Numbered from the stretch's first letter, positions 8,602 through 61,117 are shown. The stretch is 64,000 bases of DNA from Acidobacteriota bacterium (GCA_003697135.1 RFGC01000038.1:162320-226319), one strand, 5' to 3'. Numbers and translations: made by a program. Notes: a model not told the origin generated them from the letters alone.

Positions 8602-9312
8602 GTGAAAAAAACTTCGAGCGGAAAATCAGATGAAACTGCGTTTTGGAAGTATTTTTCCGAGATAGAAAGTGCTTTGAGCAAGAAGTGCGGAAGAAAAATC
8701 TTCTTAAGCCCGCTGGATTGGGGATTGATAGAATCTTGGCAAAAGCGCGGCGTTCCTTTGCACATAATCTTGAAAGCTATTGACTCATTCGACACCGCTG
8801 GAAATCACAAAAGAAAACTTAACTCGCTTCGTATTTTCCGAAACAAAATCGAATCAGAATTTAGCTTTTGGCTCAAAAGAAGTGTCGGGAAACACGATAA
8901 AAACGAACCAATAGTTTCAAAACCGCTCGATGCGAATTCTTTAGCTTCAGAGAAACAAGCGCACCTACAAGAAAAAATAGACCTTCTCAATTCAGCAATC
9001 ACGGTAAACAACGAACAAATCGGAAAGGCTCTGAGCAAAACAATCGCTCAACTTGAAAATCTCAAACAATTCAACGATTTTGAAGCTTTAGAAGTCGAAC
9101 TTGAGAAACTGGAAAAAGAAATCAACAAGGCTTTGTTAACTTATGCCGATTCCGAAACTCTCGAAAAACTCAAGCGAGAAGTTGAAAAGCAGATGTCCAG
9201 ATACAAATTCCGCACCGATGAAAAAACTTTCAAACGAAACTGCGAGCTAATGCTTTTGAAACTACTGCGAAAGCACTATAACATTCCGCATCTGGGACTA
9301 TTCGATGTTTAA
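8602..9312 (+). CDS. Hypothetical protein; weak DnaD-like N-terminal segment plus a coiled-coil C-terminus
   Basis: 236-aa ORF with a GTG start. LSPLDWGLIESWQKRGVPLHIILKAID resembles the DnaD/DnaB_2 replication-initiation domain pattern. The C-terminal half is K/E-rich and helical. Confidence 0.6.
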   Translation: MKKTSSGKSDETAFWKYFSEIESALSKKCGRKIFLSPLDWGLIESWQKRGVPLHIILKAIDSFDTAGNHKRKLNSLRIFRNKIESEFSFWLKRSVGKHDKNEPIVSKPLDANSLASEKQAHLQEKIDLLNSAITVNNEQIGKALSKTIAQLENLKQFNDFEALEVELEKLEKEINKALLTYADSETLEKLKREVEKQMSRYKFRTDEKTFKRNCELMLLKLLRKHYNIPHLGLFDV

Positions 9313-9354
9313 CCTTAAGGGCGAAAGTTGTTTCAGATTCGAGTTGTAGATGAG

Positions 9355-10161
9355 TTATGTTTTCTTGATTTTCGAGAGCTTATCGAATTTTTTACGATAG
9401 TCAGGACCTTCAACCACGATTGTTTGACACATTTCATAAAGCCTTGAACGCAATCTTGCGCCGATTCTGTCTTCTAGCGTTTCTTCTCTTTCGTCTCTGC
9501 GTTCGTCCAAATAATTCGTGGTAAATATGGTTAGTTTTTCGTCGTTATACCGAGTGTTGATGATAAACGACATTGTATCTTTGACCCATTCTGTGGGCTT
9601 TGAAGCTCCGAGTTCATCGAGAACCAAAATTTCCGCTTCCAGAACCGGTTCTAAAACCTTCAACTCCGATGATTGAGTTGCGGGATTGTAGGAGTTCTGA
9701 ATTTCTCGTAAAAGCGAGCCGAATTCGCAGAATAAACAATTGAAGCCTCTTTCCGTTAAGCACTTCAAGATCGAGACGGCAAGATGTGTTTTACCAGTCC
9801 CGACGCCGCCCATGAAGAGCAAACCTTTTTCGACATCTGGATATTTCTGCGCAAGAGTATACGCACGTTTGAAAGCATTTTTTTGCGATTCTGTCAAGGT
9901 TTGATAGTTTGAAAACGAACAATTTGAATATCGCTTCGGGATTCTAACTCTCTCGAAAAGATTCTCTTGAATTCTCTTCCGACGACAGCTACAAGGACGC
10001 GCTCCCTTGCCCGGAATAAGCTCCATTCCCGAACCGTAGCATTTCGGGCAAACTTCTACTGCTTTCTCCGGAAAGGGCAAAGATTTATCAGTTTGACCCG
10101 GAACAACATAAAACTTGGGATTAGACATCTCCTGCGCCATCGTCTCAAAAAATCTTTTCAA
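9355..10161 (-). CDS. DnaC/DnaI-type AAA+ helicase-loader-like ATPase with an N-terminal Cys4 finger
   Basis: Walker A GGVGTGKTHLAVS, Walker B ILVLDELG and IIFTTN-type sensor (LTIFTTNY). N-terminal CPKCYGSG...CSC zinc-ribbon-like motif. Confidence 0.85.
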   Translation of the reverse strand: MKRFFETMAQEMSNPKFYVVPGQTDKSLPFPEKAVEVCPKCYGSGMELIPGKGARPCSCRRKRIQENLFERVRIPKRYSNCSFSNYQTLTESQKNAFKRAYTLAQKYPDVEKGLLFMGGVGTGKTHLAVSILKCLTERGFNCLFCEFGSLLREIQNSYNPATQSSELKVLEPVLEAEILVLDELGASKPTEWVKDTMSFIINTRYNDEKLTIFTTNYLDERRDEREETLEDRIGARLRSRLYEMCQTIVVEGPDYRKKFDKLSKIKKT

Positions 10162-18709: not shown

Positions 18710-20503
18710 ATGAGACTAAACGGCAAAATACTCGCTCTCTTTTTCATGCTCTTTTCTTTGGTTTCCTTCGGTCAAACCCAGCCGAAAGGGACCAAAGAAA
18801 AGACCACAAGAGAACTTCAAAGAAAGCAGGCTGTATTGATTCTGAAGAACAACCTGCTGAATTCAAAAAGCATTGCAAACAAATATCAGCAAACCGATGT
18901 AATCGCTCAGGCTTTTTTGGCACTGTGGAATGAAGATCGTCGTTTCGCCACGGATTTCCTCATGGAGTCAATAAAATCCGACCTAAAAAGTTATGAATCT
19001 TTATTGGAGAAAGAATCTGAAGAAAAATCCGAAGAAAAAGAAGAACTTGCGTATTCCATAAATACGAAAATAAAGGCACTTGCGAAAAAGGAAGTAGCGG
19101 CTGCGGATTCTTTGATGAAAGAGTTTATCCGAATGAAATCAAACGAAATACTTTCTCAGCAAGACCTCAACCAAAGAATGAAAATAGCGATGGAAGGATT
19201 TGATCCGGAAAATCCTCAACATTTGCTCCTTATGACTCAAATAATCGAAATCGGCATCCCAGACATTTTCCCAAAGTTCATAGTAGATTTAAGCCTTAAA
19301 AAACCTGATGTAGCAAATCAAATAGTTCAACAAGCAATCAGAAATCTATCAAGCAGAAACTCTTACAAACTCAGGCACGCAATTTTAATCAGCACGTTGG
19401 TTTTCAAGGAAAACATGCTCTTAATTCCTGTTTTGGAAGAAAACTCAGATGAATTTTTCGTGCTAACAACTCCTTTAGCCGATGCTCCAAAACTTAGGAA
19501 CTCCGATAATCCTGAAACTTTCAGGAATCTAATAACAAATTTTCTTTCATCGTGCATTAGATTTTTCCAGAATAAGCTCCAAGACTCGGTAAACACGGGA
19601 TTCAACGAAAGAAACGAAGTTTTTCAGGCTTACTTTTTGCTGAAGAAAATCCAAGCCTATAGCAATACTCTCAACCTTCCTCAAGATGCATGGGCAGGCA
19701 TCGAAACTCAATTAAGCTTACAGTGCCAACAGGCAAATCTGTCATCGCAGATTTTATCCGATGTAAAGGCTTACGCTGAACGACTCGCCTTTTCAAATAA
19801 TCCGCTCGCTATTGACGATGGAACGACTAGCCTCAAAAAGGCTGAAGAAGCAACCGACCCAAGACAAAAAATCATTCACCTAATTGATGCTGTAGTTCTC
19901 ATGATTCAAAGAAGGAAGTTCGACGAAGCAGAAAAGAAAATATCAGAAATCCCAATCGAAGAACTCCGCAAGCCTTTGAAGAATTTTCTGAACCTGCAAT
20001 TATCGCTGGTTTATCTCGACGAAAAAAATTGGCTTGATTTTGAAAAGCAGGTCTCTCAAATAGATGATGAAACCGTAAAAACTTACCTTTACTTGAAGGC
20101 TATCGAAAAGAATCCGAAAGAAATTCGTTATTCTTTGGAGCTGAGAAAATCAATCGAAAAAATTGACAATCCGACCACAAAAACAGCCGCTTATTTTACA
20201 CTTGTTTCAACCTTGCTTAAGTTGAAGCATAAAGATTTCGATACCGTCTTCTTCGACGCATTGAAAGCTCTAAATCAGACGCCAGACTACGAAGAACAAC
20301 CCTTTGGAGTAGAAATAAAAATAATCCCGCTTGAAAGAATTATTTTCGCCTCTTATTTTCAGGAAAATGCCTTCAGAGACACTTTTGCAAACCTGGCAAA
20401 GAGAAACTGGGAAATCGCAAAAGTCCGCTCTTCAGACATCAAAGCCCAGGGACTGAGAGCAATCGCCGAAGTAACAGCCGCTTCGGCTATGCTAGAGCAA
20501 TAA
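18710..20503 (+). CDS. Hypothetical secreted helical protein
   Basis: 597-aa ORF with signal peptide MRLNGKILALFFMLFSLVSFGQ. No recognisable catalytic motif. Its stop codon is 7 bp from the first CRISPR repeat. Confidence 0.75.
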   Translation: MRLNGKILALFFMLFSLVSFGQTQPKGTKEKTTRELQRKQAVLILKNNLLNSKSIANKYQQTDVIAQAFLALWNEDRRFATDFLMESIKSDLKSYESLLEKESEEKSEEKEELAYSINTKIKALAKKEVAAADSLMKEFIRMKSNEILSQQDLNQRMKIAMEGFDPENPQHLLLMTQIIEIGIPDIFPKFIVDLSLKKPDVANQIVQQAIRNLSSRNSYKLRHAILISTLVFKENMLLIPVLEENSDEFFVLTTPLADAPKLRNSDNPETFRNLITNFLSSCIRFFQNKLQDSVNTGFNERNEVFQAYFLLKKIQAYSNTLNLPQDAWAGIETQLSLQCQQANLSSQILSDVKAYAERLAFSNNPLAIDDGTTSLKKAEEATDPRQKIIHLIDAVVLMIQRRKFDEAEKKISEIPIEELRKPLKNFLNLQLSLVYLDEKNWLDFEKQVSQIDDETVKTYLYLKAIEKNPKEIRYSLELRKSIEKIDNPTTKTAAYFTLVSTLLKLKHKDFDTVFFDALKALNQTPDYEEQPFGVEIKIIPLERIIFASYFQENAFRDTFANLAKRNWEIAKVRSSDIKAQGLRAIAEVTAASAMLEQ

Positions 20504-20510
20504 AGATACC

Positions 20511-21933
20511 GCTTCAATGGGGCCACGACTTTTTGGTCGTGGAAATCAGTGTTGATGATTGAACGCCTAGGCCTAATGATAAGCTTCAATGGGGCCACGA
20601 CTTTTTGGTCGTGGAAATGCTGTAGAAGAAAGTATTCCTTCGATTCCTTCTGCGCTTCAATGGGGCCACGACTTTTTGGTCGTGGAAATCAGTATTCACT
20701 CGAGCAACAACGTCTTCAAAGCACGAGCTTCAATGGGGCCACGACTTTTTGGTCGTGGAAATCTTATCTCTGATTTCACACCAGTCAAACTAGAATCAGC
20801 TTCAATGGGGCCACGACTTTTTGGTCGTGGAAATAAATCCTCTGTGTTAAGAAGCTCAACGCTGAAGCTATGGCTTCAATGGGGCCACGACTTTTTGGTC
20901 GTGGAAATCTTTTCCCGAAGCCCTTCAGCTTCCATTCTCAATATAGCTTCAATGGGGCCACGACTTTTTGGTCGTGGAAATTCGTCAAAATACAGATTCC
21001 ACAGTCCGTGAGCCTCATACGCTTCAATGGGGCCACGACTTTTTGGTCGTGGAAATTTTCTTTCTGTTGTTTCTTTTTTGAAACGGCATAACTTGCTTCA
21101 ATGGGGCCACGACTTTTTGGTCGTGGAAATAAGGTTTCAACAGCATATTAAACACCCGTGAAGTTTGGCTTCAATGGGGCCACGACTTTTTGGTCGTGGA
21201 AATACGGCGTTGCACTTTCCAGTTTTGCTTGCGCAATTCATGCTTCAATGGGGCCACGACTTTTTGGTCGTGGAAATTGAAATGCCGACTCTACAGTTTT
21301 TGCAACAATTTTCTCGCTTCAATGGGGCCACGACTTTTTGGTCGTGGAAATGCGTGATGGTTACGGACTGTATGCTGATGTGGACAGCGCTTCAATGGGG
21401 CCACGACTTTTTGGTCGTGGAAATTCAATCGATTGCGGTTTGGTTACACTTAGAAGCTCGTGCTTCAATGGGGCCACGACTTTTTGGTCGTGGAAATCTT
21501 TTGTTGATGTTTGTGGCGCGGCAGTTGGGCGAAGCTTCAATGGGGCCACGACTTTTTGGTCGTGGAAATCTGTTTGCCCGTTTCAACATCAGAGAACCAG
21601 TTGATGCTTCAATGGGGCCACGACTTTTTGGTCGTGGAAATTTACCAGAATATAATATTCTCTTATTTTAGTCAAGAGCTTCAATGGGGCCACGACTTTT
21701 TGGTCGTGGAAATTTGGGTGAAGTAGTCATAGAGGGAGGAAGGGAGAGAGCTTCAATGGGGCCACGACTTTTTGGTCGTGGAAATCCGCAACAACCTCAA
21801 CAACCTCAACAACCTCAACAACCTGCTTCAATGGGGCCACGACTTTTTGGTCGTGGAAATTATCGGACGTCGTATGTGATATCATCACCACGCACCGGCT
21901 TCAATGGGGCCACGACTTTTTGGTCGTGGAAAT
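20511..21933 (-). CRISPR. CRISPR array with 20 identical 36-bp repeats and 19 spacers (35-39 bp); minus-strand direction is inferred
   Basis: GCTTCAATGGGGCCACGACTTTTTGGTCGTGGAAAT starts at 20511, 20583, 20654, 20727, 20799, 20873, 20946, 21021, 21095, 21168, 21242, 21316, 21389, 21462, 21534, 21606, 21678, 21750, 21825 and 21898, with no mismatches seen. The reverse complement ends in ATTGAAGC, which gives the strand inference. Confidence 0.98.
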
Positions 21934-22244
21934 AGTAGCTAGTATAAGAGCCGTATTTTCAAAGACCTACAAGGCAACTTTCGAGAGCCTCGCTCATTCT
22001 TTCTAAAAGTTAAACTTTTTTGCCAGGTTTGTCAAGTAAATTTTGCTTGTTTCTTCTGAATTTTGTTAAAGTTACGAAAATTCGAGAGGTTATTTTTGAA
22101 AATTTGAAGAGAATTGAGATTGCAGAATTGCTTGAAGTGCCGATTTTTAGGCTTTGGGAAGTGCTGAGAATTTTCAATTCATGTCATAAAAATCGAAAAT
22201 CTCAAAATCACCACCTAACCGCTCGAAAATTGAGTTCTATCGAA
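21934..22244 (-). promoter_or_regulatory. Putative CRISPR leader (A/T-rich non-coding flank)
   Basis: 311 bp without a credible CDS lie between the last repeat and the convergent peptidase stop. The opposite flank has only 7 bp to a stop codon. Confidence 0.45.
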
Positions 22245-57505: not shown

Positions 57506-60500
57506 TCACTCTTCAAATTCTATCGCATCGGCTTTCGTAGTTTCCGATTCTTCTTCATCTTCTTCTCTGAGTATCGAAGCGCTGGTGACGAAATCATCGC
57601 TGTTTGTGTTGATCAAGATAACTCCTTGAGCGCTTCTTCCGGTTTCGCGAATTTTATCAACGCCTATTCTTATCAATTTACCTTGCCTTGTGATGATCAT
57701 GACCTCAGAATTTTCATCAACCGGAAAAGCGGCAACTACGTTTCCAGTTTTTTCCGTGACTTTCATGTTTATAACGCCGTAAGCTCCGCGCTTGGTCAAA
57801 CGGTAACTGCTTACCTGAGTTTGTTTCCCATAGCCTTTTTCCGATATTGAGAGGATTTTCTCGCTACCCTCGGGCGAAACTGCACAGGCTGAAACTACAA
57901 AATCACCGTCTCTTAATGAAATCCCGCGAACGCCCATAGCGACTCTTCCCATCGGACGGACATCTGATTCATCAAATCTAACAGCCATTCCTCGTCCTGT
58001 TGCTATAAAAATCTGCTTTTTGCCATCGGTAAGCATTGCGGTTATAAGCTCATCACCTTCGGACACTTTTATTGCATTTATGCCGCTTGAACGAATGTTT
58101 TGATACTCGGAAAGCGGAGTCTTTTTGATCGTTCCTTCTTTCGTAACCATCGTTACGTATGCGTCCAAATTGAAATCACGAATCGGCAAGACTGCAACAA
58201 TCTTTTTGTCCGAAGGAATCGGCAAAAGATTGACTATAGCCTTTCCTCTTGCCGAAGGCTCAGCTTCGGGTATTTCGTGAACTTTGAGTTTATAGACCTG
58301 CCCGTCATTTGTAAAAATCATCAAATATGCGTGAGTTGAAGCAATAAACAGATGCTCGACAAAATCTTCGTCTTTTGCCTTTGCGCCCAATTTTCCTTTT
58401 CCGCCTCGCCGTTGTCTCGAATAACTCGTAACCGGAGTTCGCTTTATGTAGCCCATTTTCGTTACGGTTATCACCACATCTTCATCTGCAATCAGGTCTT
58501 CTATTTTGATTTCAACTCCGGCATCAACTATTTCGGTTCTTCTCGGATCGCCAAATTGTTTTTTTATTTCCTGAAGTTCCTTTATGATAACCTGCCTTAA
58601 AAGTTTCTCACTTGCCAAAATCGCTTCAAGTTCTGAGATTTGCTTTAGAAGTTGCTCAAGCTCATCAATTATTTTTTGCCTTTCCAGAGCAGACAATCGC
58701 CTCAGTTGCAAATCCAAAATAGCCTGTGCTTGAATTTCCGAAAAATTCAGCCTTGCTATGGCTTTTTCCAAATCTTTCAAAAATCCCGAAACTGTCTTAT
58801 CGGAAGGTATGCCGCGCCAGTTTTTGACTTCGTAAAGAGTTGAAAAGTCTCCAGTAAGCCAAGCCTTCGCCTCTTCAATTGAGCGCGAATTTCTGATAAG
58901 CGGAATTATGTAATCGAGTGCATCAATAGCTTTGTTCAAGCCTTCCAAAACATGAGCGCGGGCTTTGGCTTTTTTCAGCTCATATTCAGTCCGTCTTCTA
59001 ACAACTTCACGGCGAAAGTTTACAAACGCCTCAAGAAGCTGTTTGAGATTCAAAATCTTTGGCTGACCATTAACCAAAGCCAGATTGATTATGCCGAAGC
59101 TGGACTGCATCGGCGTTAGCTTATAAAGCTTGTTCAAAATGACCTGAGCGGTAGCACCTCGTTTGAGTTCAAGAACTACTCTGATGCCTTCTCTGTTGGA
59201 CTCATCACGAATTTCTGCAATGTCTTCCAGCTTTCTTTCCTGTATCAATTCGGCAATCTTCTCGATAAGTTTCGCCTTGTTTACCTGATATGGAATTTCC
59301 GTTATAACGATAGCGTCACGCGAACTTGAACCGTGTTCGATTCTGTCTATTGCCGCTTTTGCGCGAATCTGAATCACGCCTCGGCCTTCTTTGTAAGCCC
59401 TGTAAATACCTTCGCGACCGTAGATGAAACCTCCTGTAGGAAAATCAGGCCCCGGAACATATTTGATTAGCTCATCAATTGTGATGTCTGGGTTTTTTAT
59501 CAGTTCTATCGTTGCGTCAATTATCTCCGATAAATTGTGCGGCGGAATCTTCGTAGCCATGCCTACGGCAATTCCTTCAGAGCCATTCACCAAAAGATTC
59601 GGAAAACGCGCAGGCAAAACGACCGGCTCGGAAAGTGAATCATCGTAATTCGGCTGAAAATCAACGGTCTCTTTTTCGATGTCTGCAAGAAGTTCTTCAG
59701 CTATCCTTGCCATTCTAACTTCCGTGTATCTTTGAGCCGCCGCAAGGTCGCCATCAATACTGCCAAAATTTCCCTGTCCATCAATCAAGGGATAACGCAT
59801 CGAAAACGACTGCGCCATTCTAACAATGGTCTCATAAACGGCCATGTCACCGTGCGGATGATATTTACCTAAACAGTTATGAACCGCACAACCCTGAACC
59901 AAGAATTCATGTCCTTCATCTTCGATTTCAACATCGAAAGTTTCAGCTCTCTCGCCTTTGTCAACAACCGTAACGCATTCAACAATCGAGTAATTCTTAA
60001 CTATGTCTTCGAGTTTTTCTACAATCAGTGAATCTGTATCGTTCAGATTTGCCAAAATACTGCTAGATTCTGCACGTAAATTCTCTTGCGTCAAAAACGT
60101 TCGATTCAAAATTTCATAGGTCGCTTTCAGCTCAGTTTTCAAATAAGGACGAATCCAATCAAAAAAGCGCAGAGCAGTTTTGCCTCTCAACTTCAAAGCA
60201 AATTTCTCTAGACAACTGTTCTCTATACTGTCAACAATCTCTTTGCTTTCATTTGCAGTGCCGTGCAAACCTACATCAGCAAGCATTGCTTGAATTTGCA
60301 AGACAAGAGACTTTGAAGCAGCAGACAAGACCACTTCATGCGTAGAAATCCCAAAATCAGCGATTCCAATAGCCTGGACTCCTTTAACTCTCTGAATCCC
60401 AGAGATTTTGGAACTTTTAAGTGCATTGTAATCGAAGTCATTAACGCTTAAAGAAAAAACTCCCTGAACCAAACCAGCAAGGAAAGGCGCAAAAAGCCTT

Positions 60501-61117
60501 CTATCTTCCAAAATCCAGAAAGGAATCTCGTTTGAAAATTCTTTGGCGAGAAGGAAGCCTGCTTTGCAGGCTGAGTTTATTTTTTCTTGGCTGTTGTGAG
60601 TTTCTGGAAGATTGAATTTTTCAGGACTAGAAACCAAAACCTTTTTTCCTGCCAGATTTTCAGCGTATTCCCAAACTATTTCGAGATCATTTGTCAAAAC
60701 ACGAAACTTTTGCTTTTTCGTAACCTTCAGCGAACATCCATTTGAGAGAAAAACTTCGACAATTTCCGAAGGTGGATTGTGATAAGTTTGAATGACGCGG
60801 CTTGTTTTGCCATTCGGCATTAAAACCGACTCACCGATCTCGATTTTCTCAATCGGTTTCAAACCCTTTGCAGTATGAACCAAACTCCCCGCAACAAAAC
60901 ATTCGCCGACAATACGGGCTGACTTTTTGTAAGGTTTGTTATGCGTATTTCCCAGCTCGTGCATCGCCCACAGAACGCGACGGTGAACTGGTTTTAGTCC
61001 ATCGCGAACATCAGGCAAAGCACGCCCAATGATTACGCTCATAGCGTAATCCAAATAAGAACGCCGCATTTCGTCTTCAATGCTAACTTGGCTCGTTATA
61101 AAATCTTTTGTCTGCAT
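57506..61117 (-). CDS. gyrA: DNA gyrase subunit A, interrupted in frame by an intein
   Basis: [37 protein letters not shown], active-site [10 protein letters not shown], and a C-terminal beta-pinwheel with an acidic tail. It is 1203 aa; without residues 73-414 it is 861 aa. Confidence 0.95.
59876..60901 (-). mobile_element. Intein (342 aa) within gyrA
   Basis: The extein ...KSARIVGE is followed by [10 protein letters not shown] (block A). The element ends in [23 protein letters not shown] (blocks F/G) and is followed by +1 Cys, then LGKYHPHGD. The central region carries a LAGLIDADG-like [11 protein letters not shown]. Codons were checked: TGT at 60901-60899, AAC at 59878-59876, TGT at 59875-59873. 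Confidence 0.85.

Follow-up and report, generated by a model that had tools for sequence, protein, structure and literature searches.

A remote CRISPR array of the type I-G repeat family with recent spacer uptake, probably serviced in trans, in an uncultured Pyrinomonadaceae bacterium (Acidobacteriota)

Introduction

CRISPR arrays are often found at a distance from cas genes, a situation that is well documented (PMC8616872, PMC13142298). Such arrays are termed 'isolated' when cas genes are present elsewhere in the genome and 'orphaned' when the genome contains none (PMC13142298). The isolated CR3 array of the type I-F system in Pseudomonas aeruginosa, for instance, works in immunity, acquires spacers and has a leader like those found next to cas genes (PMC13142298).

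A repeat of type I-G (previously I-U) that has been studied by experiment is that of Thioalkalivibrio sulfidiphilus (GTCATCCGCGGCATTTAGCCGCGGCCTCATTGAAGC, from the supplement of PMC9638904). In this system, Csb2 cuts the 36-nt repeat 4 nt 3' of a 7-bp stem (PMC9638904). Cleavage leaves the canonical 8-nt 5' handle, and Csb2 remains bound to the 3' hairpin (PMC9638904). Here, we describe an array with a closely comparable repeat in a 64,000-nt stretch of DNA (hereafter, the window) from a member of the Pyrinomonadaceae. By exact protein matches, the window corresponds to about 162,321-226,320 of contig Ga0181962_1022736 (249,521 bp) in JGI metagenome 3300014796.

Results

Anatomy of the array

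In general, a CRISPR array is recognised by identical direct repeats of 23-55 nt, regular spacing and unique spacers of similar length, and the array in the window has all of these. The 36-mer GCTTCAATGGGGCCACGACTTTTTGGTCGTGGAAAT (plus strand) occurs in exactly 20 copies with 0 mismatches between 20511 and 21933, and the end repeats are intact on both sides. The 19 spacers measure 35-39 nt and are all distinct, the highest pairwise ungapped identity being 46%. The exact-match count and the spacer list thus agree with a sequence-only reading of the same DNA, which had reported 20 mismatch-free 36-mers at these coordinates, 19 different spacers of 35-39 bp and two intact terminal repeats (all 20 copies are indeed identical). 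That reading had also considered that the 36-mer might be a dispersed repeat; no additional copy is present in the 64-kb window at up to 3 mismatches, with a chance expectation of 0 copies. Tandem Repeats Finder detects the same array with periods of 71-74. The nearest Rfam model is CRISPR-DR16 (RF01330), to which all 20 repeats match on the minus strand with 20.3-26.5 bits. These scores stay below its gathering threshold (35 bits), the Rfam scan at that threshold returns no match, and the repeat is not a CRISPR-DR16 member by the Rfam criterion. Read in the RNA sense (minus strand), the repeat is ATTTCCACGACCAAAAAGTCGTGGCCCCATTGAAGC. The features of the locus are as follows.

20511..21933, minus strand: CRISPR array, 20 identical 36-nt repeats and 19 unique 35-39-nt spacers, delimited by exact matches
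20511..20546, minus strand: trailer-end repeat, intact; starts 7 nt past the stop codon of a convergent 597-aa ORF (18710-20503)
20547..21749, minus strand: 17 older spacers with intervening repeats, in the same order in the NCBI metagenome-assembled genome (MAG) GCA_026002895.1
21786..21897, minus strand: two leader-proximal spacers and the repeat between them, strain-only, the newest acquisitions
21934..22244, minus strand: leader, 311 nt, non-coding, 34% G+C compared with 42% for the window
21979..21987, minus strand: leader motif CTCTCGAAA, begins 54 nt upstream of the first repeat

Two plus-strand ORFs of 140 aa (20589-21011) and 168 aa (21165-21671) cross the array and are read-through artefacts of the repeats. 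The proteins that flank the array are deposited as GIU82290/GIU82291 and RMH32981/RMH32983, and, to judge from the gap in accession numbers between RMH32981 and RMH32983, one public annotation may include a spurious protein within the array. The second-newest spacer (21786-21824) consists almost entirely of a tandem repeat, CAACAACCT x4 on the plus strand (Tandem Repeats Finder row 21789-21824), and must derive from a target with a 9-nt (3-codon) repeat.

Orientation, leader and recent spacer uptake

Turnover of spacers at one end of an array in otherwise identical genomes is a classic mark of leader-proximal acquisition. Two assemblies allow such a comparison with the window. In the NCBI MAG GCA_026002895.1 (contig BPGF01000001.1, 2.69 Mb), the same locus holds 25 repeats, and the sequence and order of its 17 left-hand spacers are those of the window. 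Towards the right-hand end, spacers are private to each assembly: two in the window (21861-21897 and 21786-21824), seven in the NCBI MAG and at least four in ENA ERZ6863514, a lower bound as the ENA contig ends inside the array. None of them is common between assemblies. The ENA contig also has the 311-nt stretch that adjoins the array on the right, next to its four other spacers, and the leader is 100% identical in all three assemblies. Outside the array, the flanks of the window are 100% identical to those of the NCBI MAG over 20.0 kb and to those of the ENA contig over 8.1 kb; despite this identity, the two newest spacers of the window are missing from both other arrays. Because three assemblies with identical flanks carry different leader-end spacers, the array has been updated very recently, and its acquisition of spacers is polarised and strain-specific. 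Having the same flanks but private new spacers, the three strains could serve as a natural time series of adaptation if their source samples were revisited. The array had already been judged unlikely to be a decaying relic on account of its intact end repeats. That judgement stands, given that the three assemblies differ only in the spacers at one end, and the turnover of spacers settles the matter more firmly than the intact end repeats do.

The functional strand is the minus strand, with the leader to the right of the array; the plus-strand reading of the repeat given earlier has to be reversed. This orientation follows from the spacer turnover at the right-hand end, from the matching sense of the repeat on the cas strand in cas-linked relatives (see below) and from the sub-threshold CRISPR-DR16 matches, which all lie on the minus strand. 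The leader extends from the first repeat to the stop codon of a gene for an S55-peptidase-like protein. An AT-rich leader at one end and polarised addition of spacers at that same end are both as expected of a CRISPR locus. A sigma-70-like site within the leader (minus strand, 22069-22040) is a weak match to the consensus only and is not counted as evidence.

The locus also coincides with contig ends. The 718,814-bp contig of ENA ERZ6863514 (L076) has its start within the array, and the trailer-end repeat is where two short Logan contigs (L003, L004) stop. Differences in spacer content between strains seem to interrupt assemblies at this site.

Repeat fold and likeness to the type I-G repeat

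The window repeat is predicted to form a hairpin of 7 bp (nt 5-24), with the remaining 12 nt at its 3' end unpaired (-10.7 kcal/mol, z = -3.5). After the predicted stem come CCCC and then the 8 nt ATTGAAGC. The Thioalkalivibrio sulfidiphilus repeat shares the length of 36 nt, a 7-bp stem with the 3' arm ending at nt 24, and 4 nt after the stem that are followed by the identical octamer. In the published Thioalkalivibrio construct the spacer is 36 nt long, compared with 35-39 nt in the window. The sequences of stem and loop are unlike, with 20 of 36 positions identical in a manual position-by-position comparison. Moreover, the cas genes are known in Thioalkalivibrio, whereas no cas gene lies in the ~82 kb around the window array. 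The predicted fold, together with the same layout and handle as in the studied repeat, corresponds to the architecture that is recognised by Csb2; as far as prediction and analogy go, the window repeat has exactly the unusual geometry of the Csb2 type.

Related arrays and their cas genes

The exact 36-mer has 0 matches in the genome and metagenome contig collections, which evidently exclude the source assemblies. The last 19 nt of the repeat, GTCGTGGCCCCATTGAAGC, are found at 64 loci in the genome contig collection. Some 40 of them are arrays whose 36-nt repeats read NNTTCCACGAC-loop-GTCGTGGCCCCATTGAAGC; the hosts are Methanothrix/Methanosaeta, Thermoplasmata, Planctomycetota, Dehalococcoidia and other Chloroflexota. 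A proportion of 92% of their spacers (n = 690 in total) measures 35-39 nt. The loop varies freely among the related repeats, and the 5' stem arm varies only with G-U pairing kept; with the 3' arm fixed by the search pattern, this behaviour of the 5' arm is weak evidence for the hairpin.

The flanks of the related arrays contain recurrent ORF clusters with NCBIfam matches above the curated cut-offs. The families concerned are the Cas4g/Cas1g fusion (NF049935, E = 1e-190 to 1e-217), Cas2 (TIGR01573), the Cas5/Cas6 fusion Csb2 (TIGR02165), Csb1/Cas7g (TIGR02570) and Csx17/Cas8g (TIGR04113). A Pfam census of 140 flanking ORFs counted Cas1 (16 members), Cas4 (16), Cas_GSU0053 (8) and Cas3 (2), and no other recurrent cas family besides those of type I-G. 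The repeat family therefore adjoins the signature genes of type I-G, in other genomes only. At around 20 related loci, cas4/1, cas2 or csb genes occur within an 8-kb block, whereas the window array has housekeeping neighbours. The repeats of the cas-linked type I-G arrays (L006-L068) differ from the window repeat at 2-8 of 36 positions, with the last 19 nt identical, and those of L052 and L037 differ in the loop only. Spacer lengths are alike as well, as is a CNCTCG motif at -53 to -55 in the leader. Two of the loci, L015 and L017, have the order csb1-csb2-cas4/1-cas2, a leader of ~180 nt and then the array, with the repeat in the sense ATTTCC...GAAGC on the cas strand. The orientation of the window array as deduced from spacer turnover agrees with this sense.

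The same 19-mer is thus identical in methanogenic archaea, Thermoplasmata, Planctomycetota, Chloroflexota and a member of the Acidobacteriota, an observation that may be of use to CRISPR specialists. Such identity across archaea and bacteria points to a wide horizontal spread of one type I-G lineage. At one locus from the Logan collection (L087, SRR29604911), a type I-G operon of the order csb1-csb2-cas3-341 aa-cas4/1-cas2 is immediately followed by a phage-type integrase gene and a Prim-Pol gene, a hint that integrative elements carry some of the type I-G loci.

Leader motif

A CNCTCG motif is present at -53 to -55 in 16 leaders (array starts) of related arrays from both archaea and bacteria; loci with this conserved motif include L010, L013, L015-L017, L019, L024, L028, L029, L040, L045, L047, L049, L064 and L065. 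By our own estimate, the chance of the minimal motif in a 3-nt window is ~0.003. The full 9-mer CTCTCGAAA of the window leader also occurs in seven Methanothrix/Methanosaeta leaders. In the loci checked in this respect, L015 and L017, type I-G cas2 immediately precedes the CNCTCG leader. The window leader hence has its motif in common with cas-adjacent arrays of the same repeat family. To judge from these sequences, the remote array carries both the repeat and the leader signature of the other arrays of its family, as would be expected if the same integrase serves it, and CNCTCG(AAA), at a constant distance of ~54 nt to the first repeat, may be the site that is recognised during type I-G spacer integration.

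The window leader contains a second copy of the motif, CTCTCGAA, at -155 (22081-22088, minus strand). Elsewhere in the window, three copies of CTCTCGAAA lie within 9158-9958, probably by coincidence.

Genes around the array

Among all 45 window ORFs of at least 100 aa, Pfam identifies housekeeping genes only and no cas gene. They include glutamine synthetase, NusB, LigA, methylmalonyl-CoA mutase, peptidases and MFS transporters, as well as a TonB-type outer-membrane protein, GlmU, GlmS, SecA and GyrA. PADLOC and NCBIfam searches of the ORFs without a Pfam match return no Cas model, no intergenic gap in the window holds a Cas2-sized ORF, and the 10 kb past each window end on the source contig is likewise free of cas genes. 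The earlier claim that the window lacks cas genes is thereby borne out by all four approaches and extended to a cas-free stretch of ~82 kb, which covers 29 kb or more beyond the trailer end of the array and 52 kb or more beyond its leader end. Two protein searches for Cas4g/Cas1g, one with a ten-protein profile and one with the Cas4/1 of L052, whose repeat is the closest to that of the window, gave more than 6800 matches each; among the 120 matches listed, none stems from the known contigs of the organism or from a named member of the Pyrinomonadaceae. One candidate from these searches (P0043), with a mix of sources like that of the window proteins, was rejected as it belongs to another genome (GCA_041488095.1).

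Two other regions of the window deserve mention. At 8602-10161, a stand-alone DnaC/IstB-like AAA ATPase (9355-10161) occurs without an adjacent IstA transposase, and the 236-aa ORF beside it (8602-9312) has a weak LmuB-like match in PADLOC (E = 4e-5). Furthermore, gyrA (57506-61117, minus strand) encodes 1203 aa, far above the usual length, and shows weak Pfam matches to Intein_splicing and Hint at about residues 73-414, ahead of the topoisomerase IV domain. This gyrA probably carries an intein.

Insertion site and origin of the array

Both neighbours of the array encode proteins whose N-termini, read by eye, resemble signal peptides, consistent with the earlier description of an array between two genes for secreted proteins. 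The closest syntenic relative (L083, JGI 3300020567) has an S55-type peptidase that is 72% identical to the one beside the window leader, with gene order kept on both sides and a gene for an M15 dipeptidase located 269 nt after the peptidase gene. Its syntenic site contains no array, no equivalent of the 597-aa ORF (18710-20503) and no related repeat. More distant relatives have no array either, and there synteny is broken. Because the closest syntenic relative is without the array, the sequence comparison identifies the array as a lineage-specific gain at this site.

The product of the 597-aa ORF (plus strand) starts with a signal peptide, its predicted structure is entirely helical, and it has no match in Pfam, NCBIfam, PADLOC or, by sequence, the PDB. 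Its family is small, with 71 representative clusters among 1.84 billion proteins, and a single-sequence AlphaFold model (mean pLDDT 50.8) is too poor for a fold search. A homologue in L086 (34% identical) has no array beside it. Based on the lack of a family match and on this homologue, a CRISPR-related role for the ORF was rejected.

Spacer targets

The earlier reading had proposed a search for the targets of the spacers, which yielded no protospacer in phage or plasmid records or in scans of viral and metagenome contigs. A blastn search of the whole array against phage and plasmid collections returned nothing significant, eight 20-mers, drawn from the newest spacers and from some of the older ones, gave 0 matches in viral contigs, and one spacer 20-mer gave 0 matches in metagenome contigs. 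The spacers of all three strains, compared with 84 kb of host sequence and with the fetched type I-G cas loci, produced only chance matches of 12-16 nt.

Discussion

Taken together, these sequence comparisons make it likely that the locus is a working isolated CRISPR array with a repeat of the type I-G family, for which a type I-G system of its Pyrinomonadaceae (Acidobacteriota) host acts in trans. Servicing in trans is suggested by the type I-G architecture of the repeat, by the position of related repeats beside type I-G cas genes and by a leader motif that is also found in cas-linked leaders. The sequence-only reading had left a choice between a distant cas locus that acts in trans and a non-canonical use of the array. 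The former fits the repeat, its relatives and the leader motif, while nothing supports the latter, the 84 kb of available host sequence containing no self-match. We infer the cas locus of this genome from the association of the repeat and leader with cas genes in other genomes and from the recent uptake of spacers; the genes would be expected elsewhere on a chromosome of ~2.7 Mb or larger.

The following mode of action can be proposed. The array, whose orientation is given by the spacer turnover, would be transcribed on the minus strand from a putative promoter in the 311-nt leader. Each repeat would then fold into its 7-bp hairpin, and Csb2, the Cas5-Cas6 fusion of type I-G, would cut 4 nt 3' of the stem. 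By analogy with processing in the Thioalkalivibrio type I-G system, this would yield crRNAs with the 8-nt 5' handle AUUGAAGC and a 3' hairpin. These crRNAs would presumably be assembled into a type I-G Cascade (Cas8g, Cas7g, Csb2) that recruits Cas3 to matching DNA. New spacers would be added next to the leader by a Cas4/Cas1-Cas2 integrase, putatively encoded elsewhere, that recognises the repeat and the leader motif. Against this scheme stand the ~82 kb around the array without a cas gene, the lack of protospacers in the phage, plasmid, viral and metagenome sequences scanned, and the possibility that crRNAs from such arrays also feed a co-resident type III effector.

A different explanation is that the array is orphaned, i.e., that the genome lost its cas genes or never had any, and that the array was recently left behind and serves no function today. 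The stretch of ~82 kb without a cas gene would agree with this, as would the fact that none of the 120 matches listed in the two Cas4/Cas1 searches comes from the organism. The vacant site in L083, moreover, marks the array as a lineage-specific gain that may have arrived without cas genes. Nonetheless, all 20 repeats are identical, including the one at the trailer end, and three assemblies with 100% identical flanks have different spacers beside an identical leader. Different new spacers within identical flanks mean that adaptation machinery was at work on this very array until very recently. Such uptake speaks for an 'isolated' rather than an 'orphaned' array, and we regard the latter as unlikely.

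Similarly unlikely, in our view, is an active array whose crRNAs are mainly or also used by another effector (e.g., type III), or for which the adaptation genes are provided by a mobile element of the population. A handle of the ATTGAAGC type is common to several Cas6-processed class 1 systems; in addition, transfer of the repeat family between archaea and bacteria is evident, and the type I-G operon of L087 lies beside an integrase and a primase-polymerase gene. Against these points, type I-G families are the only recurrent cas families beside the related arrays, and no mobile-element gene adjoins the array in the window.

A more speculative variant holds that the chromosome has no cas genes of its own. 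In that case, type I-G genes would visit on a mobile element of the hot-spring population, or the array would have come as a portable cassette with the 597-aa gene, an idea that arises because the closest relative has neither of the two at the syntenic site. If true, the array would act as a 'memory-only' module on the chromosome, within an immune system that operates at the level of the population. We consider this quite improbable.

A non-canonical role is very improbable. Host-gene regulation by self-matching spacers and the blocking of CRISPR-Cas uptake by an anti-cas array are both known for some orphan arrays, namely in Listeria and for CRISPR4 of E. coli (PMC8616872). Yet, matches of the spacers to the 84 kb of host sequence and to the fetched type I-G cas loci do not rise above the chance level of 12-16 nt, and rapid turnover at the leader end is characteristic of immunity, not of a regulatory guide that stays fixed. 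Finally, the notion that the locus is something other than a CRISPR array, such as a coding sequence or some different dispersed or tandem repeat, as the readable plus-strand ORFs of 140 and 168 aa might suggest, has next to no probability and was rejected in view of the regular spacing, the unique spacers, the hairpin-forming repeat, the near-identical repeats that adjoin cas genes in around 20 other genomes, the sub-threshold match of all 20 copies to CRISPR-DR16 and the read-through nature of the ORFs.

The outcome for the preferred reading, a probable isolated array served in trans, is that an unannotated array is assigned to the type I-G repeat family, with its strand and leader fixed and with spacer uptake as an observed property. 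Its significance reaches little beyond the annotation of an uncultured Pyrinomonadaceae bacterium.

Comparison with known remote arrays

The CR3 array of Pseudomonas aeruginosa is the closest parallel in organisation: like the window array, it is remote, has a leader like those of cas-adjacent arrays and takes up spacers. Both differ in type (I-F for CR3, I-G for the family of the window repeat) and in the nature of the evidence, as function is experimental for CR3 and deduced from comparative data here. As far as they are covered by their citation in PMC13142298, the remote arrays of Yersinia pestis can be likened to the window array as well. The orphan CRISPR4 array of E. coli (I-F) is alike in that no cas genes are nearby, but it is small and static, with spacers against cas genes (PMC8616872), whereas the window array has 19 spacers, turnover at the leader end and no match to the fetched type I-G cas loci. 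Set beside these systems, the window array is an ordinary remote array rather than something new.
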